From assembly GCA_017428725.1 (NCBI GenBank), contig JAFRQH010000025.1, positions 30,869-94,868 on the forward strand: DNA of 64,000 nt, given 5' to 3'. The notes below the pieces were generated by a model that worked only from the letters and a program-made list of their open reading frames with translations, was not told the DNA's origin and made no database searches. Shown piece by piece: positions 20,282-38,268 of the stretch. Positions within the stretch are counted from its first letter, which is position 1, and each line of letters opens with the position of its first letter. Source of the stretch: Bacteroidales bacterium (GTDB lineage: Bacteria; Bacteroidota; Bacteroidia; Bacteroidales; UBA932). The position numbers and the translations under genes are program-made.

Positions 20282-22216
20282 CTATTCGGTGGGTTTCCAA
20301 TAAGTTTCGAGATCCGAGGGCAGCCGCAGGTCGCCGCGCGGGGAGAGCGAGACCGAGCCGACCTTGGGGCCGTCGGGGCTGCAGGAGCGCTTGAACTGCT
20401 GCTTGAAGAAGCGCCACAGGAAGGTGCCGAGCCACTTGCGGATGGTCGGCTCGTCATAGACGCCGTCGAAGGCCTTGCGGGCCAGGAAGAGGAGTTTGTC
20501 GGGCCCTGCCCCGGAGCGGAAGAAGTGGTAGAGGAAGAAGTCGTGCAGCTCGTATGGACCGACGGTATCTTCGGTCTTCTGGGCAATCTTGCCGTCCTTG
20601 CCTGCGGGCAGCAGTTCCGGACTGATGGGCGTGTCCACAATGTCCAGCAGGGTCTTGTGGATGTCACCGGAGGCGTCGAACTTGTTGTCGGCCGCCCAGC
20701 GGACGAGCGTGCGCACGAGGGTCTTGGGGACGCTGCAATTGACCCCGTACATGGACATGTGGTCACCGTTGTAGGTGCACCAGCCGAGGGCGAGCTCGGA
20801 CAGGTCGCCCGTGCCGACGACGATGCCGCCCTCCTTCCCGGCGATATCCATGAGAAGTTGCGTGCGTTCGCGCGCCTGGCTGTTCTCGTAGGTGAGGTCG
20901 TGGTCGGACTCGTCCTGCCCGATATCGGAGAAGTGCTGCCGCACGGCGGGGACGATGGAGATTTCGCGGGCGGTGATGCCGAGTTCGCGCATCAGTTCCA
21001 GGGAATTGTCGTGCGTGCGGTGCGTGGTTCCGAAGCCGGGCATCGTGACGCCGATGATGTTCTCGCGTGGAATGCCGAGCGTGTCGAACGCCAGGGCGGT
21101 CACGAGCAGTGCCAGGGTGGAGTCCAGGCCGCCGGATACGCCGATTACGGTTTTCCGGCAGTGGATGTGCTCCAGCCGCGTGACCAGACCCGCTACCTGT
21201 GCTGCGAGGATCTCCCGGCAGCGCATGTCAAGTTCGGCCGGGTTTCCCTGCGGGACGAAGGGATGCGGCTCCACGCGGCGGAGCAGGCATGCCTCGAAAT
21301 CCGTCGGGTTGGCCTCTCCCGAATCCTGGACGCAGTAGGGCGCTACCGGCCCTTCAAAACCGAAACTGTGTTCCTTGGCGCGAAGCGTCTCCAGGCGCTC
21401 GACGTCGATGTCGGCGACGATGTATCGGCTGCCACGGGTATAGCGTTCGGCCTCCGCGAGGATGGAACCGTTCTCGCAGATCAGCGAGGATCCGGCCCAG
21501 ACGAGGTCTGTGGTGGATTCGCCTTCGGTGCAGGAACAATAGACGTAGGCGGCATAGAGCCGCGCCGAGGTAGCGCATACCAGGCTCTTGCGGTATTCGT
21601 GTTTGAAAAGGTAATCGTTGCTGGCGGACAGGTTGATCAGCAATTGTGCACCTGCGAGGGCGGCTTGCGAGCTGGGAGGAATGGGGACCCAGAGATCCTG
21701 GCAGATCTCGATGGCGGCCGTCACGTCGCCGATCCGGAAGAGCTGGCGCGTGCCCAGCAAGATGTCGTCCTGTCCGGCGTAGCGGATGCGGGCGCCGCCG
21801 AAGGGGAGGGCGCGCGCCGGGGCGAACCAGCGCGGTTCATAGAACTCGTTGTTGCCGGCCAGGTAGCTCTTGGGCACGATACCGAGGATACGGCCCCCGC
21901 GCGCCGCCACGGCGCAGTTGTAGAGCCGTCCGGCATGACGCACCGGGGTGCCGATGACGATCATCGCATCCTGACGGGCAGTTTTCGCGACGATCTCGGC
22001 AACCGCCTGTTCCGCGTCGGCGAGCAGCCGGTTCTGCCCGAACAGGTCACCGCAGGTGTAGCCGGTCACGCTCAACTCCGGGAAAACGACCACGGAGGGT
22101 GCCTGATCTGAAAGTTTCCCGCAAAGGTCCATGATTTCCCGGGCATTTGCCGCCGGGTCGGCCACGTGGACGCGCGGCATCGCCGCCGCCACACGGATGA
22201 GTCCAAAGCACTTCAT
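20282..22216 (-). CDS. nadE: Glutamine-dependent NAD+ synthetase
   Basis: N-terminal nitrilase domain (FPELSVTG, VPKSYL, EICQDLW) plus SGGLDST, ENSQARER, GDLSELALG, SPELLP. Confidence 0.96.
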   Translation of the reverse strand: MKCFGLIRVAAAMPRVHVADPAANAREIMDLCGKLSDQAPSVVVFPELSVTGYTCGDLFGQNRLLADAEQAVAEIVAKTARQDAMIVIGTPVRHAGRLYNCAVAARGGRILGIVPKSYLAGNNEFYEPRWFAPARALPFGGARIRYAGQDDILLGTRQLFRIGDVTAAIEICQDLWVPIPPSSQAALAGAQLLINLSASNDYLFKHEYRKSLVCATSARLYAAYVYCSCTEGESTTDLVWAGSSLICENGSILAEAERYTRGSRYIVADIDVERLETLRAKEHSFGFEGPVAPYCVQDSGEANPTDFEACLLRRVEPHPFVPQGNPAELDMRCREILAAQVAGLVTRLEHIHCRKTVIGVSGGLDSTLALLVTALAFDTLGIPRENIIGVTMPGFGTTHRTHDNSLELMRELGITAREISIVPAVRQHFSDIGQDESDHDLTYENSQARERTQLLMDIAGKEGGIVVGTGDLSELALGWCTYNGDHMSMYGVNCSVPKTLVRTLVRWAADNKFDASGDIHKTLLDIVDTPISPELLPAGKDGKIAQKTEDTVGPYELHDFFLYHFFRSGAGPDKLLFLARKAFDGVYDEPTIRKWLGTFLWRFFKQQFKRSCSPDGPKVGSVSLSPRGDLRLPSDLETYWKPTE

Positions 22217-22358
22217 AGACGCAAATATAGCGCATTTGCGCTAGCTATGCAAACGCATTCTCTTCGGCAGTTTTTCATTTTTTTATTCTCGATTACGCAC
22301 TTATTCGCGTGTGGCGGTCGGCTCGAGGAGAAGGACTGCAAAAAAGTGAAAAAAAGTA

Positions 22359-22388
22359 TTGCATTAATAAAATTTCTTCTTAACTTGC
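22359..22388 (+). promoter_or_regulatory. Probable promoter of the glnA leader (-33 TTG, 19-nt spacer, variant -7 TAACTTGC)
   Basis: TTG at 22359-22361 and TAACTTGC at 22381-22388 with Bacteroidota-like spacing; the -7 element deviates from TAnnTTTG. Confidence 0.45.
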
Positions 22389-22412
22389 GATCGAATTTTT
22401 GGTTAAAAAGTA

Positions 22413-22487
22413 GTGAAACACAATCGCAATAATCAGCAGAATCAGTCCTGGAACCAGCAGTCCCAGGTTGTTTCTCTGTGCGTATAA
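22413..22487 (+). CDS. Gln/Asn-rich leader peptide of a putative glnA attenuator (24 aa, MKHNRNNQQNQSWNQQSQVVSLCV)
   Basis: GTG start after an A-rich tract with an in-frame TAA just upstream; 6 CAG (Gln) and 5 Asn codons in residues 4-18; followed by alternative hairpins and a terminator; not in the ORF track. Confidence 0.78.
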   Translation: MKHNRNNQQNQSWNQQSQVVSLCV

Positions 22488-22532
22488 CTCCAGCCGTATG
22501 CGGCACATTATTGAGAAATAACAGAAGATAAT

Positions 22533-22573
22533 AGAGAGGCTGGTCCCGACGGGATCAGCCTCTCTGGCTTTTT
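22533..22573 (+). terminator. Attenuator terminator hairpin upstream of glnA
   Basis: 15-bp stem AGAGAGGCTGGTCCC-gac-GGGATCAGCCTCTCT (one G-U) followed by GGCTTTTT; 42 nt before the glnA ATG, on the same strand. Confidence 0.85.
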
Positions 22574-22615
22574 GATTAAAAGATAACAGTTAGTTTAACA
22601 AATAGTGTATTTATT

Positions 22616-24790: not shown

Positions 24791-24845
24791 GGAGCGGTAC
24801 TTCCTTTTTATAGCGTTGGTTAGTAGAATTATCAGTTAGAAGTCA

Positions 24846-27800
24846 ATGTCTGACGGTTTATATAATCCGGCATCGGAACACGATGCCTGCGGGGTCGGTA
24901 TGGTCGTAAACATCCGCGGCGACAAGACCCACGAGCTGGTGGACAACGCCCTGACCGTGCTCGAGAACATGAGCCACCGCGGCGCCGAGGGCGCAGACGG
25001 CAAGTCGGGCGACGGCGCCGGAATCATGCTGCAGATCCCGCACGAATTCATTCTCCTGCAGGGCATTCCCGTCCCGGAAAAAGGACGCTACGGCACCGGC
25101 CTGGTGTTCCTGCCCAAGGAAGCGGCCAAGCGGGAGCGCATCCTGGACTGCATCAGGAACGAAGTCGAACACGAGGGCTGCGTGCTCAGCCACGTCCGCG
25201 AGGTGCCGGTGAACTCCGCCTGCCTCGGCGAGGAGGCGGCAAAGGGCGAACCCTTCACGGTGCAGATCTTCGTGACCAGTGCGGAATTCATCGAGGAGGC
25301 GGACTTCGAATGCAAACTTTACCGCATCCGCAAACACGTTGAAAGGCTGGGGGAGGACGGCTACATCTGCTCCTTGTCCACGCGCAACATCGTATACAAG
25401 GGGATGCTCACCAGCCGCCAGCTGCGAGAGTATTATACCGACCTCACGAGCCAGTGGTTCACGAGCGCGATGGCGATCGTCCACTCCCGCTTTTCTACGA
25501 ATACCTTCCCGCAGTGGAGCCTGGCCCAGCCCTTCCGCATGCTCTGCCACAACGGCGAGATCAACACCATCCGGGGCAACCGGAGCTGGATGCAGGCCCG
25601 CCAGAGCGTGCTGAACTCGGGGGCGCTGGGCGATATCAGCGACATCACGCCCATCATCCAGCCGGATATGAGCGACTCGGCCAGCCTGGACAACGCGCTG
25701 GAATTCCTGACCCGGAGCGGGCTCAGCCTGCCGCAGGCCGTCTCCGTGCTGATGCCGGAGAGTTTTGACGGCACGAATCCTATCTCGGAGGACCTGCGCG
25801 CCTTCTATGAATACCATTCCATCCTGATGGAGCCCTGGGACGGTCCGGCCACGCTGCTCTTCAGCGACGGCCGTTACGCCGGCGGCATCTTGGACCGCAA
25901 CGGCCTGCGTCCCGGCCGATACACCATCACCAAGCGCGGCATGCTGGTCGTCGCGAGCGAGGTGGGCGTGCTGGACTTCGACCCCACTGAAATCGAGTGC
26001 AAGGGCCGCTTGGAACCGGGCAAGATGCTGTTGGTGGACACCAAGGAAGGCAAGATATGGTACGACGCCGAGATTAAGGAACAGCTGGCCAGGGAGCATC
26101 CCTACCGCAAGTGGCTGGCCGCGGGACGCATCCAGCTGGAGGACCTGCACAGCGGCCGCCGGATCGAGCACAACGAAGCCGACCTGCTGCACAAGGAACT
26201 CCTGTTCGGCTGCACGGCGGAAGATGTGGAAAACTGCCTCAAGCCGATGTGCCTGCGGGGCATCGAGGCAACCTCTTCAATGGGCAACGATACGCCGCTG
26301 GCCGTGCTGACGGAACGCCCGCAGAGCTTCTTCAACTATTTCCGGCAGCAGTTCGCCCAGGTGACCAACCCGCCCATCGACTCCATCCGTGAGCAGATGG
26401 TGATGTCGCTGTTCGAGTACATCGGACGCGTGGGGACCGGCATCCTGACCCCGGACGAAGAGAACTGCAAGATGGTCCGCCTGCCGCACCCGATCCTGAC
26501 CAATACGCAGCTGGACCTGCTCTGCAACATCCGGTACAAGGGCTTCAACACCGTCAAGCTGCCCATCCTGTTCGAATGTGCGGCGGATTCCGCCGCCGCG
26601 GCGTCGAACCTTCGCCGGGCTCTGAGCAACCTCTGCCGCAAGGCGGAGAAGTGCGTGGACGACGGTGTGAACTACATCATCCTGTCCGACCGTGAAGTGG
26701 ATGAGAACCACGCCCCGATTCCCTCGTTGCTGGCCGTGAGTGCGGTGCATCACCATCTGATCGCCACCGGCAAGCGCGTGCAGACGGCGCTGATCGTCGA
26801 GAGCGGGGAAATCCGCGAGACGATGCACGCCGCTCTGCTGCTCGGTTACGGCGCCTCGGCCATCAACCCGTACCTGTCCTTCGCCATCATCTCCAGCCTG
26901 GCGCACGGCGGAAAACTGCAGCTGAACTACGCCACGGCCCGCACCAATTACATCGAAGCGATGAAGAAGGGCCTGCTGAAGATCATGGCCAAGATGGGCA
27001 TCTCCACCATCCGCTCCTACCGCGGGGCCAAGATCTTCGAGAGTATCGGCTTGGAAGAGGGACTGCTGCGCGAGTACTTCGGCACGGAGACTTCGACTAT
27101 CGGCGGCATCGGCCTGGAGACCATTGCCCGCGACGCGATGTGGTTCCATGCGCAGGCTTATAAGGACGCTCCCATGACGGACTTCCTGCCCAACGTCGGA
27201 CAGTTCCATTACCGTAAAGGTGGTATCCCGCACGCGTGGAATCCCGAGACGATCTCCACCCTGCAGATTGCCACGCGCCTGGGCAGCTACAGGAAATTCA
27301 AGGAATTCACCGCCGCCGTGGACGGAAAGGAGGACCTCATCTTCCTGCGCGACCTGCTGGACTTCAAGCGGGGCAAAGCCGTTCCCATCGACGAGGTGGA
27401 GAGCGTGGAAGACATCGTCCGGCGCTTCGTGGTCAGCGCCATGAGTTTCGGTGCGCTGAGCATCGAGGCCCACGAGGCCATCGCGCTGGCGATGAACCGC
27501 CTGGGCACACGCTCGAACACCGGCGAGGGCGGGGAAGACAGTGCCCGTTACCACAGCGACGTGGACGGCGTCTCGCTGTCCAGCAAGACCAAGCAGGTGG
27601 CTTCCGGACGCTTCGGCGTCACGGCGGAATACCTCGTCAACGCCGAGGAAATCCAAATCAAGGTCGCCCAGGGCGCCAAGCCCGGCGAGGGCGGCCAGCT
27701 GCCGGGATTCAAGGTCAACGCCATCATCGCGAAGACCCGCAACTCCATCCCGGGCATTACCCTGATTTCCCCGCCGCCGCACCATGACATCTACTCCATC

Positions 27801-29324
27801 GAAGACCTCTCCCAACTGATCTTCGACCTCAAGAACGTCAATCCGGCCGCCGCCATCAGCGTGAAGCTGGTGTCGGAAAGCGGCGTGGGCACGATTGCTG
27901 CCGGCGTGGCGAAAGCCAAGGCAGACCTGATCGTCGTGTCCGGTGCCGAGGGCGGCACGGGCGCATCGCCGGCCTCTTCGATGCGTTTCGCCGGTATCAG
28001 CCCGGAAATCGGTCTTGCGGAGGCGCAGCAGACGCTGGTCCGGAACGGCCTGCGCGGATCGGTACGCCTGCAGGTGGACGGCCAACTGAAGACCGGACGG
28101 GATGTCGTCCTGCTCGCACTGCTGGGCGCCGACGAATTCGGCTTCGGCACCCTGCCGCTGATCGTGCTCGGCTGCGTGATGATGCGCAAGTGCAGCCTGA
28201 ACACCTGTCCCACGGGAGTAGCCACGCAGGATCCCGAGCTGCGCAAACACTTCCTCGGCAAGGCGGACTTTCTGGTGAACTACTTCACCTACCTGGCACA
28301 GGAGGTGCGCGAATACCTTTCGGAAATGGGCTTTACGAAGTTCTCCGACATCGTCGGGCACACTGAACTGCTGGTGCGCAAGACCGCCGCGCCGGCTTCC
28401 AAGGCCGCCCGTGTGGACCTGTCCCGGCTGCTTTTCCAGGAGCAAGGCGTGCTCTGCTGGGCCGGTGGCCCGCTGCATGAATTGCCGCCCGTGCTGGACC
28501 GTGAGATCATCAAATCGGCGCAGCCCGCCATCGAGTGGCAGGAGGAGATCAGCCTGGAGTATCCCATCGCGAATACCGACCGGGCCGTGTGTACGATGCT
28601 CAGCGGCCGGATCGCCGCCAAGTACGGCACCGAAGGCCTGCCGGACTCCACCATCAACATCAAGTTCAAGGGTTCGGCCGGGCAAAGCTTCTGCGCCTTC
28701 CTCGCGGGCGGCGTGAACGTGCGCCTGGAAGGTGAGGCCAACGATTACGTGGGCAAGGGCCTGAGCGGCGGCCGGGTGGCCATCCGGCCATCTTCACGCG
28801 CGACCTTCAAGGCGGAGGAGAATATCATCGCGGGCAACACCTGCCTGTACGGAGCCACGGGCGGCGAGATGTATATTGCCGGCCGGGCGGGTCAGCGTTT
28901 CGCCGTACGCAATTCCGGCGCGCGCGCCGTCGTCGAAGGCGCGGGCGACCATTGTTGCGAATATATGACCGGCGGACGCGTGGTCGTCCTGGGGCCCGTG
29001 GGACGCAACTTCGCCGCCGGTATGTCCGGAGGCGTGGCTTATGTCTATGACCCGGAACACGTGTTCGACTACTACTGCAACCTCGACATGGTCGAGATTT
29101 CGCTGGTGGACGACAAGCTGGACCGCAAGGAACTGCACGAACTGATCCGCCAGCACTACCTCTACACCGGCTCCGTCCATGCCCGGACGCTGCTGGACGA
29201 CTGGACCCGTTCCGTGGACGACTTCATCAAGGTCATCCCGATCGAATATAAGCATGTCCTCGAGCAGGAGCGCCTGCGCGCCCTGGAGGAAAAGATGCAG
29301 CAGCACCTCCAAATCCAATACTGA
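24846..29324 (+). CDS. gltB: Glutamate synthase large subunit
   Basis: HDACGVG propeptide/Ntn Cys, HSRFSTNT, HNGEINT, AQGAKPGEGGQL, CSLNTCPTGV cluster motif, GXGXG C-terminal domain. Confidence 0.98.
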   Translation: MSDGLYNPASEHDACGVGMVVNIRGDKTHELVDNALTVLENMSHRGAEGADGKSGDGAGIMLQIPHEFILLQGIPVPEKGRYGTGLVFLPKEAAKRERILDCIRNEVEHEGCVLSHVREVPVNSACLGEEAAKGEPFTVQIFVTSAEFIEEADFECKLYRIRKHVERLGEDGYICSLSTRNIVYKGMLTSRQLREYYTDLTSQWFTSAMAIVHSRFSTNTFPQWSLAQPFRMLCHNGEINTIRGNRSWMQARQSVLNSGALGDISDITPIIQPDMSDSASLDNALEFLTRSGLSLPQAVSVLMPESFDGTNPISEDLRAFYEYHSILMEPWDGPATLLFSDGRYAGGILDRNGLRPGRYTITKRGMLVVASEVGVLDFDPTEIECKGRLEPGKMLLVDTKEGKIWYDAEIKEQLAREHPYRKWLAAGRIQLEDLHSGRRIEHNEADLLHKELLFGCTAEDVENCLKPMCLRGIEATSSMGNDTPLAVLTERPQSFFNYFRQQFAQVTNPPIDSIREQMVMSLFEYIGRVGTGILTPDEENCKMVRLPHPILTNTQLDLLCNIRYKGFNTVKLPILFECAADSAAAASNLRRALSNLCRKAEKCVDDGVNYIILSDREVDENHAPIPSLLAVSAVHHHLIATGKRVQTALIVESGEIRETMHAALLLGYGASAINPYLSFAIISSLAHGGKLQLNYATARTNYIEAMKKGLLKIMAKMGISTIRSYRGAKIFESIGLEEGLLREYFGTETSTIGGIGLETIARDAMWFHAQAYKDAPMTDFLPNVGQFHYRKGGIPHAWNPETISTLQIATRLGSYRKFKEFTAAVDGKEDLIFLRDLLDFKRGKAVPIDEVESVEDIVRRFVVSAMSFGALSIEAHEAIALAMNRLGTRSNTGEGGEDSARYHSDVDGVSLSSKTKQVASGRFGVTAEYLVNAEEIQIKVAQGAKPGEGGQLPGFKVNAIIAKTRNSIPGITLISPPPHHDIYSIEDLSQLIFDLKNVNPAAAISVKLVSESGVGTIAAGVAKAKADLIVVSGAEGGTGASPASSMRFAGISPEIGLAEAQQTLVRNGLRGSVRLQVDGQLKTGRDVVLLALLGADEFGFGTLPLIVLGCVMMRKCSLNTCPTGVATQDPELRKHFLGKADFLVNYFTYLAQEVREYLSEMGFTKFSDIVGHTELLVRKTAAPASKAARVDLSRLLFQEQGVLCWAGGPLHELPPVLDREIIKSAQPAIEWQEEISLEYPIANTDRAVCTMLSGRIAAKYGTEGLPDSTINIKFKGSAGQSFCAFLAGGVNVRLEGEANDYVGKGLSGGRVAIRPSSRATFKAEENIIAGNTCLYGATGGEMYIAGRAGQRFAVRNSGARAVVEGAGDHCCEYMTGGRVVVLGPVGRNFAAGMSGGVAYVYDPEHVFDYYCNLDMVEISLVDDKLDRKELHELIRQHYLYTGSVHARTLLDDWTRSVDDFIKVIPIEYKHVLEQERLRALEEKMQQHLQIQY

Positions 29325-29330
29325 CGCCTT

Positions 29331-30683
29331 ATGGGAGACTACAAAGCATTTTTGACGATACCCCGCAAGGAGGCCGGCTACCGGCCGGTGCGTGACCGCA
29401 TCCAGGATTTCGGGGAAGTGGAGCAGACGCTCAACGAAGGCGACCGCCGTCTCCAGGCGTCCCGCTGCATGGATTGCGGCGTGCCGTTCTGCAACTGGGC
29501 GTGTCCGTTGGGCAATCGCCCTCCCGAGTGGAACGACGCCGTGTTCAACGGGGATTTCGAGCTGGCCTACCGCTTGCTCAACGCCACCAACGACTTTCCG
29601 GAGTTCACCGGACGTGTGTGCCCGGCGCTCTGCGAGAAGGCCTGCGTGCTGAACCTCACGATGCACCAGCCTACCACCAACCGCGAGAACGAGGCGGCCA
29701 TTACGGAGATCGCTTATCGCGAGAATTTCGTCCGGCCCGTGAGTCCGGAGCGCAACGGCTGCAAGGTGGCCGTGATCGGTGCCGGCCCTGCGGGGCTTGC
29801 CGCCGCGAATCGGCTCAACCGGATGGGCTACACCGTGACGGTCTTCGAGAAGAATGAAAAGGCCGGCGGCCTGCTTCGTTTCGGCATTCCGAATTTCAAG
29901 CTCAACAAAAAGGTCATCGACCGCCGCATCGCCCTGATGGAAGCAGAGGGAATCATCTTCCGTTACGGCGAAGAAGTGGCGCCGGACGCCCTCCCGAAGG
30001 GCTTTGACGCCTACGTCATCGCCACCGGTACGCCTGCGGCGCGCGACCTGAGCGTGCCCGGGCGCGAACTGAAGGGCGTCTATTTCGCCCTCGACCTGCT
30101 CGCCCAGCAGAACCGTGTGTTGTACGGCGCCGAAGTGGATGCCGTGCAACGCGTAAGCTGCAAAGGCAAGGACGTCCTGGTAATCGGCGGTGGCGACACC
30201 GGCTCCGACTGCATCGGCACGGCGCACCGCCAGGGCTGCAAGTCCGTGATGCAGATCGAGATCATGCCCAAACCGCCCGTGGGACCGGACGATCCGACGA
30301 ATCCCTGGCCGGCCTGGCCGCGGACGCTCAAGACCTCCTCTTCCCACGAAGAGGGCTGCGAGCGCCGCTGGAACATCAACACCCTCCGTTTCCTCGGAGA
30401 AAAAGGCAAACTGACCGGCGTGGAGATCCAGCCCATTGACTGGAAACCCAACCCGGATGGCGGACGTCCCGTCATGGTGCCCGCCGGAGACCCGGAAGTG
30501 GTCAAGGCGGACATCGTCCTGCTGGCGATGGGCTTCCTGAAGCCGCAGCTGCCCGAGGTGGGGGAGAACGTCTTCTTCGCCGGCGACGTGCAGAGCGGCG
30601 CATCGCTGGTCGTCCGCGCGATGGCTTCCGGCCATGCGGCCGCCGAAACCCTGGATGCATATTGCAAGAAGTTGGGAAAATGA
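29331..30683 (+). CDS. gltD: Glutamate synthase small subunit
   Basis: RCMDCGVPFC..CP, GRVCPALCE, GAGPAGL, GGGDTGSDC. Confidence 0.96.
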   Translation: MGDYKAFLTIPRKEAGYRPVRDRIQDFGEVEQTLNEGDRRLQASRCMDCGVPFCNWACPLGNRPPEWNDAVFNGDFELAYRLLNATNDFPEFTGRVCPALCEKACVLNLTMHQPTTNRENEAAITEIAYRENFVRPVSPERNGCKVAVIGAGPAGLAAANRLNRMGYTVTVFEKNEKAGGLLRFGIPNFKLNKKVIDRRIALMEAEGIIFRYGEEVAPDALPKGFDAYVIATGTPAARDLSVPGRELKGVYFALDLLAQQNRVLYGAEVDAVQRVSCKGKDVLVIGGGDTGSDCIGTAHRQGCKSVMQIEIMPKPPVGPDDPTNPWPAWPRTLKTSSSHEEGCERRWNINTLRFLGEKGKLTGVEIQPIDWKPNPDGGRPVMVPAGDPEVVKADIVLLAMGFLKPQLPEVGENVFFAGDVQSGASLVVRAMASGHAAAETLDAYCKKLGK

Positions 30684-32299
30684 TGAATACCAAGTACATC
30701 TTTATCACAGGCGGTGTGGTTTCCTCCCTCGGGAAGGGGATCATCTCCGCCAGCCTCGGCAAGCTGCTGCAGGCGCGTGGATTCAAGGTCACCATCCAGA
30801 AATTCGACCCCTACATCAACATCGACCCGGGTACGCTCAATCCCTACGAGCACGGGGAATGTTACGTGACTGCGGACGGTATGGAGACCGACCTGGACCT
30901 GGGACATTACGAGCGTTTCACGGGCATCCGTACCACGCGCGAGAACTCCATCACCACCGGCCGCATCTACAAGACCGTCATCGACCGCGAGCGCCGGGGC
31001 GATTACCTCGGCAAGACCATCCAGGTGGTGCCCCATATCACCGATGAGATCAAGCGCCGGATGCTGCGGAAGGACGTGAAGGGAGAGGAACTGGACTTCG
31101 TGATCACCGAGGTGGGCGGTACCATCGGCGACATCGAGAGCGCCCCCTTCATGGAGGCCATCCGGCAGTTGCGCTGGCAGCTGGGCCGGGACGCCGTGTG
31201 CGTCCACCTGACCTACGTGCCCTACCTGAAAGCGGCCGGAGAGTTGAAGACAAAACCTACACAGCACAGTGTCAAGGAGTTGCAGGGAATGGGCATCCAG
31301 CCCGACATCCTGGTCCTGCGTACCGAGCGCCACCTCGACGATGCGCTGCGCATGAAGGTTGCCTCGTTCTGCAACGTGGACCTGGAATGCGTGGTGCAGA
31401 GCGAGGACCTGCCCAGCATTTACGAAGTGCCCGTAAACATGCAGCGGCAGGGGCTCGACGCTGCCATCCTCCGCAAGATCGGCATCCCCGTGGGCGAGAC
31501 GCCCGCGATGGCCTCCTGGCACGCTTTCCTGGAGAAGCAGCGCAATGCCAGCCGCGAGGTGCACGTGGCCCTGGTGGGCAAATACGACTTGCAGGATGCC
31601 TACAAGAGCATCCGCGAGAGCCTCAACCTGGCCGGCATCTACGAAGACGTGAAGGTAAAGATCCATTTCGTCGGCAGCCAGGGAATTACGCGTGAGAACG
31701 CGGAGGAGAAACTCGCCGGCATGGCGGGTATCGTGATCTGCCCGGGGTTCGGCCAGCGGGGGATTCCGGGAAAGATCTTCGCTGCGGAATATGCCCGGAC
31801 GCACGGTGTGCCCTGCTTCGGCATCTGCCTGGGCATGCAGATGATGGTGATCGAATTTGCCCGGAACGTCCTGGGCCTTGCCGATGCCGACAGCAGCGAG
31901 ATGAACCCCAAGACGCCGCACAACGTCATCGACTTGATGGAGGAGCAGAAAGGCATCATCCAGCTGGGCGGCACGATGCGGCTTGGGGAATACCCCTGCC
32001 GGCTTCGGCCCGGCAGCCTCGCCGGCAAGGCATACGACGGGCAGGAAAGCGTCCGGGAGCGTCACCGCCACCGTTACGAGTTCAACAACCGCTATCGCGA
32101 GGATTTTGAGCGGGCCGGCATGCAGTGCGTGGGCGTAAACCCCGATGCCGACCTGGTGGAGATCGTAGAGATTCCTTCGCTGCCTTGGTATCTGGGCACG
32201 CAGTTCCACCCCGAGTATTCTTCGACCGTGCTGCATCCGCATCCGCTGTTCATGAGTTTCATCAAAGCCTGCATCGATCATGGAACAGTTGAAGCATGA
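30680..32299 (+). CDS. pyrG: CTP synthase
   Basis: Start MMNTKYIFITGGVVSSLGKG overlaps the gltD stop; KTKPTQHSV, GICLGMQ, RHRHRYE, QFHPE. Confidence 0.97.
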   Translation: MMNTKYIFITGGVVSSLGKGIISASLGKLLQARGFKVTIQKFDPYINIDPGTLNPYEHGECYVTADGMETDLDLGHYERFTGIRTTRENSITTGRIYKTVIDRERRGDYLGKTIQVVPHITDEIKRRMLRKDVKGEELDFVITEVGGTIGDIESAPFMEAIRQLRWQLGRDAVCVHLTYVPYLKAAGELKTKPTQHSVKELQGMGIQPDILVLRTERHLDDALRMKVASFCNVDLECVVQSEDLPSIYEVPVNMQRQGLDAAILRKIGIPVGETPAMASWHAFLEKQRNASREVHVALVGKYDLQDAYKSIRESLNLAGIYEDVKVKIHFVGSQGITRENAEEKLAGMAGIVICPGFGQRGIPGKIFAAEYARTHGVPCFGICLGMQMMVIEFARNVLGLADADSSEMNPKTPHNVIDLMEEQKGIIQLGGTMRLGEYPCRLRPGSLAGKAYDGQESVRERHRHRYEFNNRYREDFERAGMQCVGVNPDADLVEIVEIPSLPWYLGTQFHPEYSSTVLHPHPLFMSFIKACIDHGTVEA

Positions 32300-34025
32300 G
32301 TGCGGCGTGGCGATGATCCGCCTGCTCAAGCCGCTTTCCTACTACGAGCGGAAATACGGCACGTCCCGTTACGGCCTGGAGAAGCTGTATCTGATGATGG
32401 AGAAACAGCACAACCGCGGGCAGGAGGGGGCCGGGCTGGCTTATGTGGACCTGGAAGCGGAGGTCGGGACGGAGTATATGTTCCGCGAGCGGGCGGAAGG
32501 CCCGGACGCCATCACGGAGATTTTCAAACGGGTGGACGCTTCGGCCAAGGCCCAGCTGTATATGGGCCATCTCCGCTATTCCACCACCGGGAAGAGCGGA
32601 CTGAGTTACGTGCACCCTTATCTGCGCCGCAACAACTGGCGGGCGAAGAACCTTTGCCTGTGCGGCAACTTCAACATGACCAACATCGACGAGGTCTTCC
32701 ATTTCCTGACTGCCCAGGGGCAGTCTCCCCGGTTGTACGGCGATGCATACATCACGCTCGAGCTGATGGGACACAGGCTGGACCGGGAGGTGGAGCGGCT
32801 GTTCGACGAAGCCACGGACAAAGGACTGGAACGGCTTGACCTGACGCGCTACATCGACGACCATATCTGTATGGCTAACGTGCTGCGTACCACGATGTCC
32901 CACTACGACGGGGGATATGTGATGTGCGGGCTCACCGGAAGCGGCGAGATGTTCGCCGTGCGTGACCCATGGGGCATCCGTCCGGCTTTCTGGTACCGCG
33001 ACGACGAGATCGTGGTCCTGGCGAGCGAGCGCCCCGTGATCCAGACGACCTTCAACCTGGAGGCCGGAGATGTGCGCGAACTTCTGCCCGGACAGGCCCT
33101 GATCGTACGGAAAAAAGGTGAGAGCCTGCTCGAGCAGATCCTGCCCGCCAGGAAACTGAGCGCCTGCTCGTTCGAGCGCATCTACTTCAGCCGCGGCTCC
33201 GACCGTGACATCTACCGGGAACGCAAGCGGCTGGGGGAGCAGTTGACGGAACCCATCCTGAAGGCCATCGGCGGTGACGTGGCACATACGGTCTTCTCCT
33301 ATATCCCCAACACGGCGGAGGTGGCCTTCCACGGGATGACGGACGGGATACGCAGGCTCGACCACGACGTGCGCATCGAGAAAGTGGTGTGGAAGGACAT
33401 CAAGTTGCGTACGTTCATCACCGAAGGTGCGGAGCGGGACAACCTGGCCGCCCACGTCTATGATGTCACGTACGGCTCCTTGGTGCCGTACGAAGACAAT
33501 CTCGTGGTCATCGACGATTCCATCGTGCGCGGGACCACCCTGCGGGAGAGCATCTTCAAGATCCTCGACCGCCTGCACCCCAAGAAGATCGTGATGGTGT
33601 CGAGTTCTCCCCAGATCCGCTATCCGGACTACTACGGCATCGATATGTCGCACCTCGAGGAACTCTGCGCCTTCCGCGCGGCCATCGCCCTGATCCGGGA
33701 TCACGGGATGCAACAGAGGATCGCAGACGTTTACCGGGCCTGCAAGGCCTATCCCGCCGCCGCGAACCACGTGCAGGAGATCTATGCCCCGTTCACCGTC
33801 GGACAAATCAATGCGAAAATCGTGGAGATGCTGCGCCCGGAGGGGATGCAGGCGCCTGTCGAACTGGTGTACCAGAGCGTCGAGGGCCTGCACCGCGCCT
33901 GCCCCGACCATCCGGGCGACTGGTATTTTACCGGGAATTATCCGACGCCCGGAGGTGTCCGCCTCTGCAATGAGGCATTCGTGAACTACGTTGAGAATGT
34001 AATGGGATTCCAATTGCAACTGTAG
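32280..34025 (+). CDS. purF: Amidophosphoribosyltransferase-like class II glutamine amidotransferase
   Basis: KHECG Ntn Cys, HNRGQEG, GHLRYST, FERIYFSRG, PRPP motif VIDDSIVRGTT. Confidence 0.82.
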   Translation: MEQLKHECGVAMIRLLKPLSYYERKYGTSRYGLEKLYLMMEKQHNRGQEGAGLAYVDLEAEVGTEYMFRERAEGPDAITEIFKRVDASAKAQLYMGHLRYSTTGKSGLSYVHPYLRRNNWRAKNLCLCGNFNMTNIDEVFHFLTAQGQSPRLYGDAYITLELMGHRLDREVERLFDEATDKGLERLDLTRYIDDHICMANVLRTTMSHYDGGYVMCGLTGSGEMFAVRDPWGIRPAFWYRDDEIVVLASERPVIQTTFNLEAGDVRELLPGQALIVRKKGESLLEQILPARKLSACSFERIYFSRGSDRDIYRERKRLGEQLTEPILKAIGGDVAHTVFSYIPNTAEVAFHGMTDGIRRLDHDVRIEKVVWKDIKLRTFITEGAERDNLAAHVYDVTYGSLVPYEDNLVVIDDSIVRGTTLRESIFKILDRLHPKKIVMVSSSPQIRYPDYYGIDMSHLEELCAFRAAIALIRDHGMQQRIADVYRACKAYPAAANHVQEIYAPFTVGQINAKIVEMLRPEGMQAPVELVYQSVEGLHRACPDHPGDWYFTGNYPTPGGVRLCNEAFVNYVENVMGFQLQL

Positions 34026-34142
34026 TAGGTAATAGTTCTATAAACAATTAATTATAAGGAACTTGCGAAATATGTCGTTTCGCTTGTCAGGGGGGTTATA
34101 TGCCCTTGTGTATGCAGATCAACCCAAAAACAATAGTAGTGT

Positions 34143-34490
34143 ATGAAAAAGATTGAAGCAATCGTCCGGAAGACGAAATTCGAGGAGGTCAAGGAGGCCT
34201 TGCTCGAAGCAGACATCAACTGGTTTGAGTACCACAATGTGCATGGCATCGGCCAGAGCCGGGAGGAGCGCATCTACCGTGGCGTCCAGTATTCTACGGA
34301 TGTGATCGAGCGTGTTGCGCTGACCATCGTCTGCCGCGACCAGTTCGTCGATCCTACCGTCGAAGTGATTCTTAAGACGGCCTCGACCGGCGAGATCGGA
34401 GACGGCCGTATTTTCATCAGCGATGTGATCGATACCTGGTCCATCCGCACCGGTGAGCACGGCGACACGGTCCTGCGCGACAAGAAGTAA
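34143..34490 (+). CDS. glnB: P-II family nitrogen regulatory protein (GlnB/GlnK)
   Basis: MKKIEAIVR, T-loop YRGVQY, TGEIGDGRIF; adjacent to amtB. Confidence 0.94.
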   Translation: MKKIEAIVRKTKFEEVKEALLEADINWFEYHNVHGIGQSREERIYRGVQYSTDVIERVALTIVCRDQFVDPTVEVILKTASTGEIGDGRIFISDVIDTWSIRTGEHGDTVLRDKK

Positions 34491-34528
34491 TGTTAGTAGT
34501 TGTTTAATTCATTCAAAATTATTGCCTT

Positions 34529-35749
34529 ATGGAAGATTTAGCTATTTCCCTCGATACTGTATGGATGTTGTTGGCTGCGATGCTCGTTTTCTTCATGCAA
34601 CCGGGCTTTGCACTGTGTGAGGCGGGTTTCACCCGCAGCAAGAACACGGCGAACATCCTGATGAAAAATTTCGTGGATTTCATGTTCGGCTCCCTGTTGT
34701 TCTGGTTCGTCGGCTTCGGCTTCATGTTCGGCAGCGACGGCGCCGGCTTCATCGGCGCGCCCAACTGGGGCAGCCTGTCTTTTTACAAGAGCGACCTGCC
34801 CGTGGAGGGTTTCCTGGTTTTCCAGACGGTCTTCTGCGCCACTTCCGCGACGATCGTAAGCGGTGCCATGGCAGAGCGTACGAAGTTCTCCATGTACTTG
34901 GTATACAGTGCGTTCATTTCCCTGTTCATCTACCCGATCGAAGGTCACTGGACCTGGGGCGGCGGCTGGCTGAGCGAGCTGGGCTTCCACGATTTCGCCG
35001 GTTCGGCGATTGTCCACAGCGTGGGTGGTGTGCTGGCGCTTATCGGTGCGATCGCACTCGGACCCCGGATTGGCAAGTATGCCCCGGACGGCAAGAGCCG
35101 GGCTATTCCCGGCCACAACCTGACGATGGCTGCTCTCGGTGTCTTCATCCTCTGGATGGGCTGGTTCGGTTTCAACCCGGGCAGCCAGCTCGCCGCCAGT
35201 GGGGAAGTGAACCGTACGGCGATCTCGCACGTCTTCCTGACCACCAACCTCGCGGCGGCCGCTGGCGGTGTGGCAACGATGTTCGCGACATGGTGGAAAT
35301 ACGGTAAACCGTCGCTCTCGTTGACCCTCAACGGAATCCTGGCCGGTCTCGTCGGCATCACGGCGGGCTGCGATCTCGTCTCCCCGCTCGGGGCAGTCAT
35401 CATCGGCCTGATCTGCGGTATCGTGCTGGTCTTTGCCATCGAGTTCATTGACCGAAAACTGCATATCGACGACCCGGTGGGCGCCTCCAGCGTGCACGGT
35501 GTCTGCGGTATCCTCGGTACGCTCATGACGGGCCTGCTGGCTACGGACGGTGGTCTCTTCTATGGCGGCGGCTGGCACTTCTTCGGTGTGCAGGCCCTTG
35601 GCATCGCGGTCATTGACCTCTGGGCCGTTGCGACTGGCTGCCTGCTCTTTTTCGGCATCAAAAAGCTCCACGGTCTGCGTGTCGGCAAGCGTGTTGAGGA
35701 GGAAGGCCTCGATATTTACGAGCACGGCGAAAGCTGCTACAATGCCTAA
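34529..35749 (+). CDS. amtB: Ammonium transporter
   Basis: FMQPGFALCEAG, DFAGSAIVH, GWFGFNPGS, IDDPVGASSVHG (twin His present). Confidence 0.97.
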   Translation: MEDLAISLDTVWMLLAAMLVFFMQPGFALCEAGFTRSKNTANILMKNFVDFMFGSLLFWFVGFGFMFGSDGAGFIGAPNWGSLSFYKSDLPVEGFLVFQTVFCATSATIVSGAMAERTKFSMYLVYSAFISLFIYPIEGHWTWGGGWLSELGFHDFAGSAIVHSVGGVLALIGAIALGPRIGKYAPDGKSRAIPGHNLTMAALGVFILWMGWFGFNPGSQLAASGEVNRTAISHVFLTTNLAAAAGGVATMFATWWKYGKPSLSLTLNGILAGLVGITAGCDLVSPLGAVIIGLICGIVLVFAIEFIDRKLHIDDPVGASSVHGVCGILGTLMTGLLATDGGLFYGGGWHFFGVQALGIAVIDLWAVATGCLLFFGIKKLHGLRVGKRVEEEGLDIYEHGESCYNA

Positions 35750-35782
35750 TTCTTTTGTTTAACTTCTAAAATGTAATTCCTT

Positions 35783-36499
35783 ATGAAAAAGATAATTGCT
35801 ATCATCGCTGCTGTAGTCCTGCCTTTCACTTCCCTGACTTCAGCCAGGGCACAGGACAAGCTGGAAGCTTCTGTCGGTGCTGACTTCGTCAGCCGCTACA
35901 TCTGGCGTGGCTTTGACCTGGGCGGCGTGTCCTTCCAACCGACGCTCGGCCTCGGCTGGAAGGGGCTGAGCCTGTCGGCCTGGGGATCGGTCGGAATCGC
36001 CAATCCGGCCGACACGAAGGAGTTCGACCTGACGCTTAGCTACACGATCGGCGGCTTCAATATCGGTGTGACGGATTATTGGTTCGATGCGGGTCTGGAC
36101 CCGCTGAACCGTTACTTCATGTACCGTTCCGACTGCACGAACCACGTCTTCGAGGCCAATATCGGTTATGATTTCGGCTTCGCCGCCATCCAGTGGTACA
36201 CCAACTTCGCCGGCAATGACGGTGTGAACCCCGCCGGCAAGCGCGCCTTCAGCAGCTATCTGGAACTCAGCGCTCCGTTCACCCTCGGCGGTGCGGACTG
36301 GTCGGCAGCCGTCGGCGTGGTTCCGTTCGCCACGGATTTCTATGGCACGGAGAAGTTCGCGCTGGTCAATCTCTCGCTGACCGCGTCGAAGGAGATCGCC
36401 ATCACGGACAGTTTCTCCATCCCCGTCTTCGCGCAGGTTGCAGCCAATCCGTACAGCCGGGAGGCCTTCTTCGTGATCGGTTTCACGCTGCAGCCGTAG
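35783..36499 (+). CDS. Outer-membrane beta-barrel protein (TorF-like putative porin)
   Basis: Signal peptide, GADFVSRYIWRG..QP N-terminus, alternating aromatic strands, C-terminal GFTLQP; directly after amtB. Confidence 0.75.
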   Translation: MKKIIAIIAAVVLPFTSLTSARAQDKLEASVGADFVSRYIWRGFDLGGVSFQPTLGLGWKGLSLSAWGSVGIANPADTKEFDLTLSYTIGGFNIGVTDYWFDAGLDPLNRYFMYRSDCTNHVFEANIGYDFGFAAIQWYTNFAGNDGVNPAGKRAFSSYLELSAPFTLGGADWSAAVGVVPFATDFYGTEKFALVNLSLTASKEIAITDSFSIPVFAQVAANPYSREAFFVIGFTLQP

Positions 36500-36552
36500 C
36501 GGTACCGTTCAATCGGAGTACAACCGTCGTTTCGTTTTAGTCGTTTATATTT

Positions 36553-36577
36553 ATTCCGGGCATGATCCGGAATCTCC
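36553..36577. repeat. REP-like palindromic element, copy 1
   Basis: ATTCCGGGCATGATCCGGAATCTCC; 22/25 identical to 40704-40728; ATTCCGG/CCGGAAT arms. Confidence 0.6.
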
Positions 36578-36600
36578 AACAGGAACAAACAGTAAAGCCT

Positions 36601-38268
36601 ATGTGTGGAATAATCGGTATTTTCAATGTCAGGGAGCAGTCTGACGCCCTGCGCCGGAAGGCCTTGGAGATGAGTCGCAAGCTCCGTCACCGCGGACCGG
36701 ACTGGAGCGGTGTATGGTGCGGAGGCAGCGCCGTGCTGTGCCACGAACGCCTGAGTATCGTGGATCCGGAGTCGGGTGGACAACCCCTGATTTCTCCGGA
36801 CGGAAAGTTGATTCTGGCCGTGAACGGCGAGATCTACAACCATCAGGAGCTCCGCGGGCGCTATGCCGGGAAATATGAGTTCCGGACAGGCAGTGACTGC
36901 GAGGTCATCCTGGCTCTCTACCGTGACCGGGGGCCGGATTTCCTGGAGGAACTCAGTGGGATTTTCGCGTTCGCGCTCTACGACGTGGAACGGGACGAGT
37001 TCCTGATCGCCCGCGACCCCATCGGGGTGATCCCGCTGTATATCGGTTTCGACGATGCCGACGGGAAGGTGTATGTAGCCAGCGAACTCAAGGCCTTGGA
37101 AGGGCGGTGCGAACGCTACGAGCCTTTCCTCCCGGGGCATCTCTACTGGAGCCGGGAGCCTGGAATGAAGCGCTGGTACACGCGCGACTGGATGGAGTTC
37201 GATGCCGTGCGCTGCAACGCAACCAGCGTCCCGGAAATCCGTGAGGCGCTGATGGACGCCGTGAAACGCCAGTTGATGTCGGATGTGCCTTACGGGGTAT
37301 TGCTGTCCGGCGGTCTGGATTCCTCCGTCATTTCGGCCATCGCCGAAAAGTTCTGTGCGATGCGTATCGAGGACGATTCGCGGTCGCGTGCCTGGTGGCC
37401 GCGCCTGCACTCCTTCGCCGTTGGCCTGAAAGGAGCGCCGGACCTCGAAAAGGCGCGGCGGGTGGCGGAGCATATCGGTACGGTCCATCACGAGATCAAC
37501 TATACCATCCAAGAGGGTCTGGATGCTATCCGGGATGTCATTTATTTTACGGAGACCTATGACGTGACGACCATCCGTGCCTCTACACCGATGTACCTGC
37601 TTGCCCGTGTCATCAAGTCGATGGGCATCAAGATGGTGCTCTCGGGAGAGGGGGCGGACGAAATCTTCGGCGGCTATCTCTATTTCCATAAGGCCCCGGA
37701 CGCGCGTGCTTTCCACGAGGAAACGGTCCGCAAGCTTTCCCGGCTGCACCTATATGATTGTCTGCGGGCCAACAAGAGCCTGGCCGCCTGGGGCGTGGAA
37801 GGCCGTGTGCCTTTCCTGGACAAGGAGTTCCTGGACGTGGCTATGCGCTTGAATCCTGTATCGAAGATGTGCCCCGGCGTGATCATGGAGAAACGCATCG
37901 TCCGTGAAGCGTTTGCAGATATGCTGCCGGAAGAGGTCGTCTGGCGGCAGAAGGAGCAATTCAGTGACGGGGTTGGCTATTCGTGGATCGATACCCTGAA
38001 ACGGATGACCTCCGAGGCGGTCTCCGACGAACAAATGACACATGCGGCGGATCGATTCCCGATCCATCCGCCGCAGTGCAAGGAGGAGTACTATTACCGT
38101 TCGGTTTTCGCGGAACTATTCCCCAGCGAGAGTGCGGCTCGCTCGGTTCCCAGCGAGCCCAGTGTGGCCTGCTCGACCGCAGCGGCCCTTGCTTGGGATG
38201 CGTCGTTCAAAGGCAGGAACGATCCCAGTGGCCGCGCCATCGCAGGTGTCCACGAGCGGGCCTATTGA
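36601..38268 (+). CDS. asnB: Asparagine synthetase B (glutamine-hydrolysing)
   Basis: True start MCGIIG (Ntn Cys2), RHRGPDWSG, NGEIYNH, LLSGGLDSS, SGEGADEIFGGY. Confidence 0.97.
   Translation: MCGIIGIFNVREQSDALRRKALEMSRKLRHRGPDWSGVWCGGSAVLCHERLSIVDPESGGQPLISPDGKLILAVNGEIYNHQELRGRYAGKYEFRTGSDCEVILALYRDRGPDFLEELSGIFAFALYDVERDEFLIARDPIGVIPLYIGFDDADGKVYVASELKALEGRCERYEPFLPGHLYWSREPGMKRWYTRDWMEFDAVRCNATSVPEIREALMDAVKRQLMSDVPYGVLLSGGLDSSVISAIAEKFCAMRIEDDSRSRAWWPRLHSFAVGLKGAPDLEKARRVAEHIGTVHHEINYTIQEGLDAIRDVIYFTETYDVTTIRASTPMYLLARVIKSMGIKMVLSGEGADEIFGGYLYFHKAPDARAFHEETVRKLSRLHLYDCLRANKSLAAWGVEGRVPFLDKEFLDVAMRLNPVSKMCPGVIMEKRIVREAFADMLPEEVVWRQKEQFSDGVGYSWIDTLKRMTSEAVSDEQMTHAADRFPIHPPQCKEEYYYRSVFAELFPSESAARSVPSEPSVACSTAAALAWDASFKGRNDPSGRAIAGVHERAY

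Follow-up and report, generated by a model that had tools for sequence, protein, structure and literature searches.

Textbook control of glutamine synthetase (GS) is exerted by proteins (NtrBC, GlnR/TnrA, NtcA and adenylylation) or, in cyanobacteria, by a glutamine riboswitch, and textbook attenuation is a matter of the Trp, His, Leu, Thr, Phe and Ile/Val operons. The window described here, a stretch of 64,000 nucleotides from a Bacteroidales bacterium (GenBank assembly GCA_017428725.1, contig JAFRQH010000025.1, positions 30,869 to 94,868 of the forward strand), holds a type III glutamine synthetase (GSIII) gene, glnN, preceded by a short upstream open reading frame (uORF) crowded with Gln and Asn (Q/N) codons and by an intrinsic terminator. 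The question raised by this locus is whether a ribosome translating the uORF could decide the transcription of glnN and of the nitrogen genes that follow it. An earlier note on this DNA had read the arrangement as an attenuator that senses Gln and Asn through the ribosome.

We consider it quite probable that the region before glnN is a ribosome-mediated (leader-peptide) transcription attenuator with Gln (CAG) and Asn (AAY) as its regulatory codons. The features by which a leader-peptide attenuator is recognized at the sequence level are all found, namely the uORF, a cluster of cognate codons, the intrinsic terminator, an antiterminator pairing and a geometry suited to masking by the ribosome. 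These parts, their conservation, the reading frame, the pairing and the geometry are established by the sequence and its comparison with relatives, in which Q/N uORFs, terminators and competing pairings are conserved and support the interpretation of the earlier note. The genes downstream make the amino acids of the regulatory codons, Gln (glnN) and Asn (asnB).

The leader peptide gene and its relatives

The uORF (22413-22487, + strand) reads GTG AAA CAC AAT CGC AAT AAT CAG CAG AAT CAG TCC TGG AAC CAG CAG TCC CAG GTT GTT TCT CTG TGC GTA TAA and encodes the product MKHNRNNQQNQSWNQQSQVVSLCV* in 24 codons. GTG 22413 is its sole possible start, and an in-frame TAA at 22404-22406 closes the frame upstream. 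As the earlier note had counted, 11 of the 15 residues from position 4 to position 18 are Gln (six, all CAG) or Asn (five). Together the two amino acids make up 46% of the residues of the uORF, compared with 6.7% in the long ORFs of this genome. In a genome-wide set of 361 small ORFs preceding terminator-like hairpins, the uORF takes first place for Q/N density, with 9 of 12 residues in its best window against 5 of 12 for the next; the same scan of 361 uORF-terminator pairs found neither a second Q/N leader nor another obvious leader for an amino acid. The genome is a 98% complete metagenome-assembled genome (MAG) of 2.63 Mb and 62.5% G+C from an uncultured organism, whose nearest named relatives are Candidatus Cryptobacteroides and Bacteroidales MAGs of the rumen and chicken gut.

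The consensus of Bacteroides promoters is TAnnTTTG at the -7 position. A Bacteroidetes-type promoter is predicted upstream of the uORF, with transcription predicted to start at about 22395. In an alignment of 14 leaders the promoter forms a conserved block of columns, and the -7 box is perfect in three relatives (TACATTTG, TACCTTTG and TAGATTTG), with TTTGCAT about 20 nt upstream. On the downstream side, the earlier note had placed a terminator of 15 bp at 22533-22565, followed by five T residues, before the GS gene (called glnA there). The terminator is present, as 16 pairs at 22532-22566 followed by GC and the T5 tract; 9 of the pairs are G-C, the loop has 3 nt, and the stem is predicted at -29.0 kcal/mol. 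It sits 45 nt before the GSIII gene and is the only terminator returned by a pattern scan of 21800-23000. The leader as a whole folds better than 200 of 200 shuffled sequences (z = -6.0).

We also note that a CAGTTAGT-like motif (ACAGTTAGTTTAAC, window 22590-22600) is situated 15-30 nt before the start of glnN. The motif occurs at the same position in the related loci L032, L033, L047, L049, L050, L054 and L091, which include loci with and without the leader, and is a candidate translation-initiation element, operator or second promoter.

The first 200 residues of glnN were searched against 60 related genomes and the DNA upstream of the matches was read. In 14 of about 30 GSIII loci of congeneric genomes, a Q/N-rich uORF and a terminator are found at the same place, and the MAFFT alignment of these 14 leaders runs from the promoter block to the terminator. 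Two pairs of the terminator stem covary in this alignment (GC/AU 7:6 and AU/GC 7:5). The 5′ arm AGGCTGG is invariant (14/14), while the 3′ arm varies (CCAGCC, TCAGCC, TCGGCC, CTGGCC) and always remains compatible with pairing. A second partner for the 5′ arm would account for this pattern, in which one arm is fixed and the other drifts through G-U-compatible changes.

A covariance model built on the 14 leaders was used to find further copies. In total about 27 distinct leaders of the same layout (promoter, Q/N uORF, a CCAGCC box at the stop codon, terminator) were found in relatives, i.e., in Candidatus Cryptobacteroides and allied genera. L062 and L065 are leaders before glnN in two other genera of the family, and L091, L092 and L095 are leaders in Candidatus Cryptobacteroides and rumen MAGs. 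The leader is also present before other nitrogen genes. In the congener locus L213, asnB precedes glnN, and a leader encoding MTGFSWNKQNNNNQNQNQNQVLGLLCSIHQS* with its terminator stands directly before asnB, the T tract being about 15 nt from the asnB ATG. In L063, a leader precedes a gene for a P-II protein that is 71% identical to the glnK product of the window and is followed by amtB; between the model match and the glnK ATG there are about 10 nt. A second glnK-amtB leader, L220, came from a search with P-II. In the genome of L063 (G204), a gene for an Lrp/AsnC-type regulator (L063 804-1337) lies immediately upstream of the glnK-amtB Q/N leader.

Gln and Asn triplets are distributed over frames 0, 1 and 2 in the ratio 256:27:34 in 24 distinct leaders, and in the same leaders the Gln codons are CAG rather than CAA by 167:4. 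The share of Asn among the Q/N codons ranges from 1/9 to 8/12 across the leaders; such interchange of CAG and AAY fits a reading of the two amide amino acids and not an RNA motif. Start codons are present throughout, the frame of every leader stays open until a stop near the box, and most of the orthologous uORFs begin with ATG. Peptides of different clades share nothing except the Q/N run (e.g., MILEAHTYRQQQFQQGFQSQNVQALNAFVCAGLPA, MSFVVLNNNNQNNNQNQQVLIASV and MYSVYNNNNQNQQNQQNNQQALRVFVCC..). Codon-position analysis of one clade gave variable sites in the ratio 9:10:17, which indicates that purifying selection on the peptide is no more than weak, in line with a leader peptide. As to synonymous choice, AAT accounts for about half of the Asn codons in the 24 leaders (44 AAT, 41 AAC) and for 4/5 in this locus, compared with 21% in the long ORFs of the genome.

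The range of the leader is narrow. A strict pattern, CCAGYC..AGGCTGG..YYRGCCT, run over 401 genomes of the family, returned 10 true leaders, this one included and all in the genus, together with chance matches. The covariance model, run over 401 genomes of the order, gave outside the family terminator-like or chance matches with no Q/N uORFs. Among 80 GSIII loci across Bacteroidota, leaders were present in close relatives only, and no leader was seen upstream of the examined GSIII genes of Flavobacteriales, Cytophagales and other Bacteroidales families. The proposal that Q/N uORFs with a terminator and a competing pairing stand upstream of Bacteroidales GSIII genes consequently holds for the genus and at least two other genera, and not for Bacteroidales generally, since the leaders were detected in one family. 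Six of the related genomes have two GSIII matches, four of them congeners (G007, G019, G028, G030) and two from other families (G047, G054). Some of the second matches are fragments at contig ends. In G028, one GSIII copy (L006, on a partial contig) has the leader and the other (L034) does not.

A sister genus (g47) provides leaders of the same build with different codons. Loci L067, L069, L075, L077 and L078 (e.g., L075, reverse strand 1446-1646) have Trp-codon leaders (MMNAQVNNFFFWRAWFWQPSVSVCASPSVQN*, ..FFFWRAWFWQ.., with three Trp codons) and a terminator upstream of a gene for a TrpB-like pyridoxal phosphate (PLP) enzyme (NCBIfam NF009057, 689 bits). They are partly matched by the covariance model of the Gln leaders, with which they have in common the sequence GTTTCTGTGTGTGC.. 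and the AAGGCTGGTC terminator. On the evidence of their sequences, these leaders are an internal positive control: the family also contains leaders of the uORF-terminator kind that use another regulatory amino acid.

The distribution of the leaders also bears on the idea that promoter, Q/N ORF and terminator form a separate unit, an independent small gene or small RNA, with glnN transcribed from its own promoter further downstream. The unit has promoter-like boxes of its own and a strong terminator, many congeners express glnN without any leader, and the conserved CAGTTAGT motif, present in leaderless loci too, could serve as a second promoter or operator. Yet the peptides share between clades only their composition and not their sequence, and the unit always lies directly upstream of, and co-oriented with, glnN, asnB-glnN or glnK-amtB. 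There is no room for a promoter between leader and gene in L213 (~15 nt) or L063 (~10 nt), and the covarying pairing and the fixed position of the stop codon, described in the next section, would be without a role in a free-standing gene. We regard such a unit as the least probable of the explanations weighed here.

Competing RNA pairings

The CCAGCC box begins 5 nt past the first base of the uORF stop codon and can pair with the 5′ arm of the terminator, a pairing that the earlier note had proposed as an antiterminator. It was examined in a box-anchored alignment of 19 distinct leaders, and it is conserved there with compensatory changes. Across the six core positions, all 114 cells hold standard pairs. 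Two compensatory double changes are observed, from A-U to G-C in L091 (CCGGCC with GGCCGG) and from C-G to U-A in the glnK leader L063 (CCAGTT with GACTGG), and each of the seven single changes in the core leads to G-U. When the partner is slid by 1-3 columns, the overall pairing falls from 78% to 12-43%, and the observed number of double-change pairs is reached in only 7 of 500 shuffles.

The position of the box relative to the reading frame is also constrained. In all 20 leaders the stop codon lies between -9 and +21 nt from the start of the box. The distance from the last Q/N codon to the box downstream is 24-39 nt, and that from the box to the arm is 42-56 nt. Taken with the generally known size of a ribosome footprint, the location of the stop codon fits the masking logic. 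The geometry agrees throughout with the earlier suggestion that a ribosome at the stop codon would mask the antiterminator.

The box is displayed in the apical loop of a hairpin, P1, whose 5′ strand is formed by the last codons of the uORF. RNAfold returns, at -17.8 kcal/mol, exactly the long upstream hairpin of the earlier note, with 22467-22476 paired to 22513-22522 and, inside it, 22477-22486 paired to 22497-22507. In 19 of 20 leaders the predicted fold places the box inside a hairpin, the stem of which differs in sequence between clades. The box is flush with the 3′ strand of P1: L1 measures 2-8 nt (mostly 2-3) and L2 measures 0-4 nt (mostly 0-1), and this loop geometry permits an H-type pseudoknot. 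From these predicted folds, P1 may be a pause hairpin, an anti-antiterminator comparable to the 1:2 structure of trp, or stem 1 of an H-type pseudoknot with the box:arm helix.

Several observations weigh against the attenuator. The first group is energetic. The box:arm helix of this locus has 6 bp and -12.2 kcal/mol, versus -29 kcal/mol for the terminator, and two other segments could pair with the same arm comparably well: 22468-77 (TTTCTCTG; UUUCUCUG) at -12.7 kcal/mol and the Gln/Asn tract GGAACCAGC (22449-58) at -14.2 kcal/mol. The pairing of TTTCTCTG with the arm, which the earlier note had offered alongside that of CCAGCC, is predicted to form such a duplex here; it is particular to this locus, unlike the conserved CCAGCC pairing. 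Folding by minimum free energy (MFE) with ribosome footprints masked, as the earlier note had suggested, gave an equivocal picture. The full RNA forms the terminator every time, and in the truncated RNA the arm of this leader pairs with the Gln-codon tract (CCAGC, 22454-58) or with 22470-78 and never with the box. For P1, per-sequence shuffles are only moderately significant, and RNAalifold gives no consensus hairpin on box-anchored windows, the stems shifting register between clades. The second group concerns translation, transcription and descent. The start codon here is GTG and lacks a Shine-Dalgarno sequence, an absence that is usual for Bacteroidetes. A second promoter may lie between the terminator and glnN. 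Most species of the genus lack the leader, so it is not essential, and the common descent of the leaders makes the counts given above non-independent.

Apart from the box, the codon strings AAC-CAG-CAG or TTC-CAG-CAG (xxC-CAG-Cxx) recreate CCAGC within the tract itself, at 22449-22458 and 22432-22437 in the window and in most leaders. These copies may be decoys or default antiterminator copies.

The weakness of the antiterminator against the terminator at equilibrium leaves some room for a translated uORF that acts by another route, i.e., through mRNA stability, Rho-dependent polarity, translation of glnN, or as an arrest peptide that senses free glutamine in the way TnaC senses tryptophan. 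The C-terminal residues of the peptides are conserved within clades (..FVCAGLPA*, ..VVS(L/A)CV*), as an arrest peptide might have them. These conserved residues, however, are encoded where the 5′ strand of P1 and the box lie, so that constraints on the RNA explain them, and the C-termini are wholly different between clades. The leaders also retain a canonical intrinsic terminator whose stem pairs covary, and tandem regulatory codons are the hallmark of attenuators that depend on charging, not of arrest peptides. We judge action by another route very improbable.

The conserved loop also suggests a reader other than the ribosome: an RNA-binding factor (TRAP-like or of another kind) or a metabolite that recognizes the CAG repeats or P1 and the box, with the ORF being incidental. 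The distances between CAG triplets are multiples of three, which is what a TRAP-type reader of repeats requires, P1 with CCAGCC in its loop resembles a binding hairpin, the complementarity of the Gln-codon tract to the terminator arm would allow CAG a role at the RNA level, and the regulator gene upstream of the L063 leader is of the Lrp/AsnC type. Against this, none of the ~27 leaders has lost its start codon, and in all of them the frame is open across the tract and ends less than 30 nt from the box. Asn codons (AAC/AAT) freely replace CAG, to the point that some leaders have 8 Asn and 4 Gln codons, which is sensible only at the level of amino acids. The Trp-codon leaders of the family, partly matched by the same model, precede a trpB-like gene, and there is no match to a riboswitch, T-box or other family of Rfam. 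A protein- or ligand-operated attenuator is therefore quite improbable in our estimate.

Proposed mechanism and signal

For the ribosome-mediated attenuator, the following course of events can be proposed. Transcription would begin near 22395 at the Bacteroidetes-type promoter, and a ribosome would initiate at GTG 22413 and enter the 11 Gln/Asn codons (22422-22466). When Gln and Asn are plentiful, glutaminyl- and asparaginyl-tRNA synthetases (GlnRS and AsnRS) would keep the tRNAs charged and the ribosome would run to the TAA at 22485, where it would cover the box (22490-95) and melt P1. The 5′ arm would then be partnerless, the terminator would form, and RNA polymerase would halt at the T tract before glnN. 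When Gln is low, the ribosome would lag or stall within the Q/N tract while still 24-39 nt short of the box, and the box would be left free. The free box would pair with GGCUGG of the 5′ arm once the latter is made, so that the terminator could not be completed, and transcription would read through into glnN-gltBD-pyrG-purF and probably on into glnK-amtB-asnB. We infer that the position of translation decides termination, that charging with Gln and Asn is the signal, and that the transcript has this extent.

The route by which the signal would reach the ribosome can be narrowed down from the gene content. GatB is absent from the 98% complete genome, the GlnRS C-domain and AsnRS are present, and there is one gene each for tRNA-Gln(CUG), tRNA-Gln(UUG) and tRNA-Asn(GUU). 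This rules out indirect sensing by way of GatCAB transamidation in this genome, and charging would read the free amino acids directly. The supply of Asn would depend on that of Gln, as the AsnB encoded in the same cluster hydrolyses glutamine. In E. coli, nitrogen limitation slows or stalls ribosomes specifically at Gln codons (bioRxiv 10.1101/224204).

A wider and more doubtful proposal, which we advance only tentatively, is that in the family of Candidatus Cryptobacteroides and its allies, gut and rumen Bacteroidales, nitrogen is sensed primarily by the translating ribosome. A Gln/Asn-attenuator regulon (glnN-gltBD, asnB-glnN, glnK-amtB) might in that case replace or override protein regulators, with a loop-displayed box in an H-type pseudoknot and a chassis that is re-targeted by codon swap, Trp versus Gln/Asn.

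Known regulatory systems and the gene cluster

The leader resembles trpL, hisL, leuL, thrL, pheL and ilvL of E. coli and Salmonella in having a promoter, a short uORF with a run of codons for the product, and a terminator before the first gene. As in the classical attenuators, a hairpin starts inside the end of the uORF and an antiterminator strand near the stop codon competes for the 5′ arm of the terminator; the proposed response, read-through at low charging, is also theirs. In contrast to them, the amino acids sensed here would be Gln and Asn, and the targets belong to central nitrogen assimilation (type III GS, glutamate synthase (GOGAT), P-II/Amt and AsnB) rather than to a single biosynthetic pathway. 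A box of 6-9 nt in the P1 loop serves as antiterminator strand, instead of one strand of a long 2:3 helix, and the uORF starts with GTG and has no Shine-Dalgarno sequence. Judged from sequence, the mechanism would be a well-known one, and its signal (Gln/Asn) and its target (central nitrogen assimilation) would be new.

We know of no Gln/Asn attenuator that has been characterised. The earlier note had said as much of a Gln-codon attenuator for GS/GOGAT, and a full-text literature search, in which the relevant survey of Lopatovskaya et al. 2010 (Mol Biol 44:128) was not covered, found no Gln- or Asn-codon attenuator and none for GS.

Other systems share either the mechanism or the output. T-boxes are similar in sensing tRNA charging (a response that is proposed here) and in switching between terminator and antiterminator; they bind uncharged tRNA directly, without translation, and are typical of Firmicutes. 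Protein control of GS (NtrBC/sigma-54, GlnR/TnrA, NtcA, NitR/ANTAR) has the same output, more GS, GOGAT and Amt at low nitrogen or glutamine, and uses dedicated sensor proteins, whereas the sensor here would be the translating ribosome. Twin hexaloop hairpins of the ANTAR type were not noticed in the leader, although no formal test was aimed at them. Tryptophan genes are linked to the Bacteroid-trp motif of Bacteroidetes. The glutamine riboswitch (glnA RNA, RF01739) and the Downstream-peptide motif of cyanobacteria and marine bacteria are cis-acting RNAs that stand before nitrogen genes (GS, P-II, Amt, GOGAT) and report glutamine (PMC2864571). The riboswitch binds free glutamine directly and without a uORF, in contrast to the leader, which would read it through tRNA charging and translation. 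The Bacteroid-trp motif (Rfam RF01692) is a candidate cis-regulatory RNA described by Weinberg et al. 2010 (PMC2864571), and its regulatory codons and regulated genes differ from those of the Gln leaders. No match to RF01692 was obtained in the window at 21500-23500 (E <= 10) or in six related loci that include Trp-codon leaders (E <= 1). The Rfam scan of 21500-23500 gave only four chance-level matches (E 1.6-8.9) to unrelated small RNA and microRNA families, with no glnA RNA and no T-box, and the scan of the six related loci (E <= 1) gave nothing relevant.

If the proposed mechanism is true, tRNA-Gln and tRNA-Asn charging read by the ribosome can be a nitrogen signal for GS-GOGAT, P-II/Amt and AsnB. 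The leader would also offer a first means of approaching the regulation of nitrogen assimilation in a rumen and gut lineage that is abundant but uncultured, in a phylum whose nitrogen control is poorly understood, and it would be a compact glutamine-responsive genetic part. The Trp-codon leaders would illustrate from nature how a change of codons may give an attenuator a new target.

The coordinates of the leader and of the genes around it are summarized in Table 1.

Table 1. Leader elements and neighbouring genes, in window positions.
Feature	Coordinates	Strand	Details
Glutamine-dependent NAD synthetase gene (nadE)	20282..22216	-	divergent, upstream
Bacteroidetes-type promoter (predicted)	22358..22388	+	-33-like ATTG(CAT) 22358-22361; -7-like box TAACTTGC 22381-22388; 19 nt between
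Leader peptide gene (uORF)	22413..22487	+	GTG start, TAA stop at 22485; orthologues in ~27 leaders
Regulatory codon tract	22422..22466	+	15 codons: 5 Asn (AAT x4, AAC x1) and 6 Gln (CAG x6)
Hairpin P1	22467..22522	+	RNAfold -17.8 kcal/mol; 5′ strand = last uORF codons; 10-nt apical loop 22487-22496 holds the CCAGCC box
CCAGCC box (conserved antiterminator strand)	22490..22495	+	complementary to GGCUGG 22539-22544 of the terminator 5′ arm
Intrinsic terminator (attenuator)	22532..22573	+	16-bp stem 22532-22566, loop GAC, then GC and T5 (22569-22573)
glnN, type III glutamine synthetase, 724 aa	22616..24790	+	Pfam GSIII_N 1.3e-73, Gln-synt_C, Gln-synt_C-ter
gltB, glutamate synthase	24846..29324	+	Pfam GATase_2, Glu_synthase, Glu_syn_central, GXGXG
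gltD, glutamate synthase	29331..30683	+	Pfam Fer4_20, Pyr_redox_2
pyrG, CTP synthase, glutamine-consuming	30662..32299	+	Pfam CTP_synth_N 8e-123
purF-like amidophosphoribosyltransferase gene, glutamine-consuming	32280..34025	+	NCBIfam purF 4e-41, below its cut-off
glnK (P-II)	34143..34490	+	NCBIfam P-II
amtB	34529..35749	+	NCBIfam amt
238-aa ORF	35783..36499	+	between amtB and asnB
asnB	36601..38262	+	Pfam Asn_synthase 4.5e-87

The earlier note had counted asnB among the genes of the operon; asnB is found in the cluster by its Asn_synthase domain, at 36601-38262, and the gene at 32280-34025 is purF-like. Terminator scans predicted no strong terminator within the 15.9-kb same-strand block from glnN to asnB, and the leader may therefore govern the whole block. 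Its control possibly reaches glnK-amtB-asnB by co-transcription, as far as the sequence indicates. Besides the 238-aa ORF, the 15.9-kb block (22616-38262) contains only genes that make or consume glutamine or ammonium. Finally, a weak terminator-like hairpin (6 bp, then TTTTAT) is present at 24789-24805 of the window, in the 55-nt gap between glnN and gltB, and could be a partial terminator that sets the ratio of GS to GOGAT.

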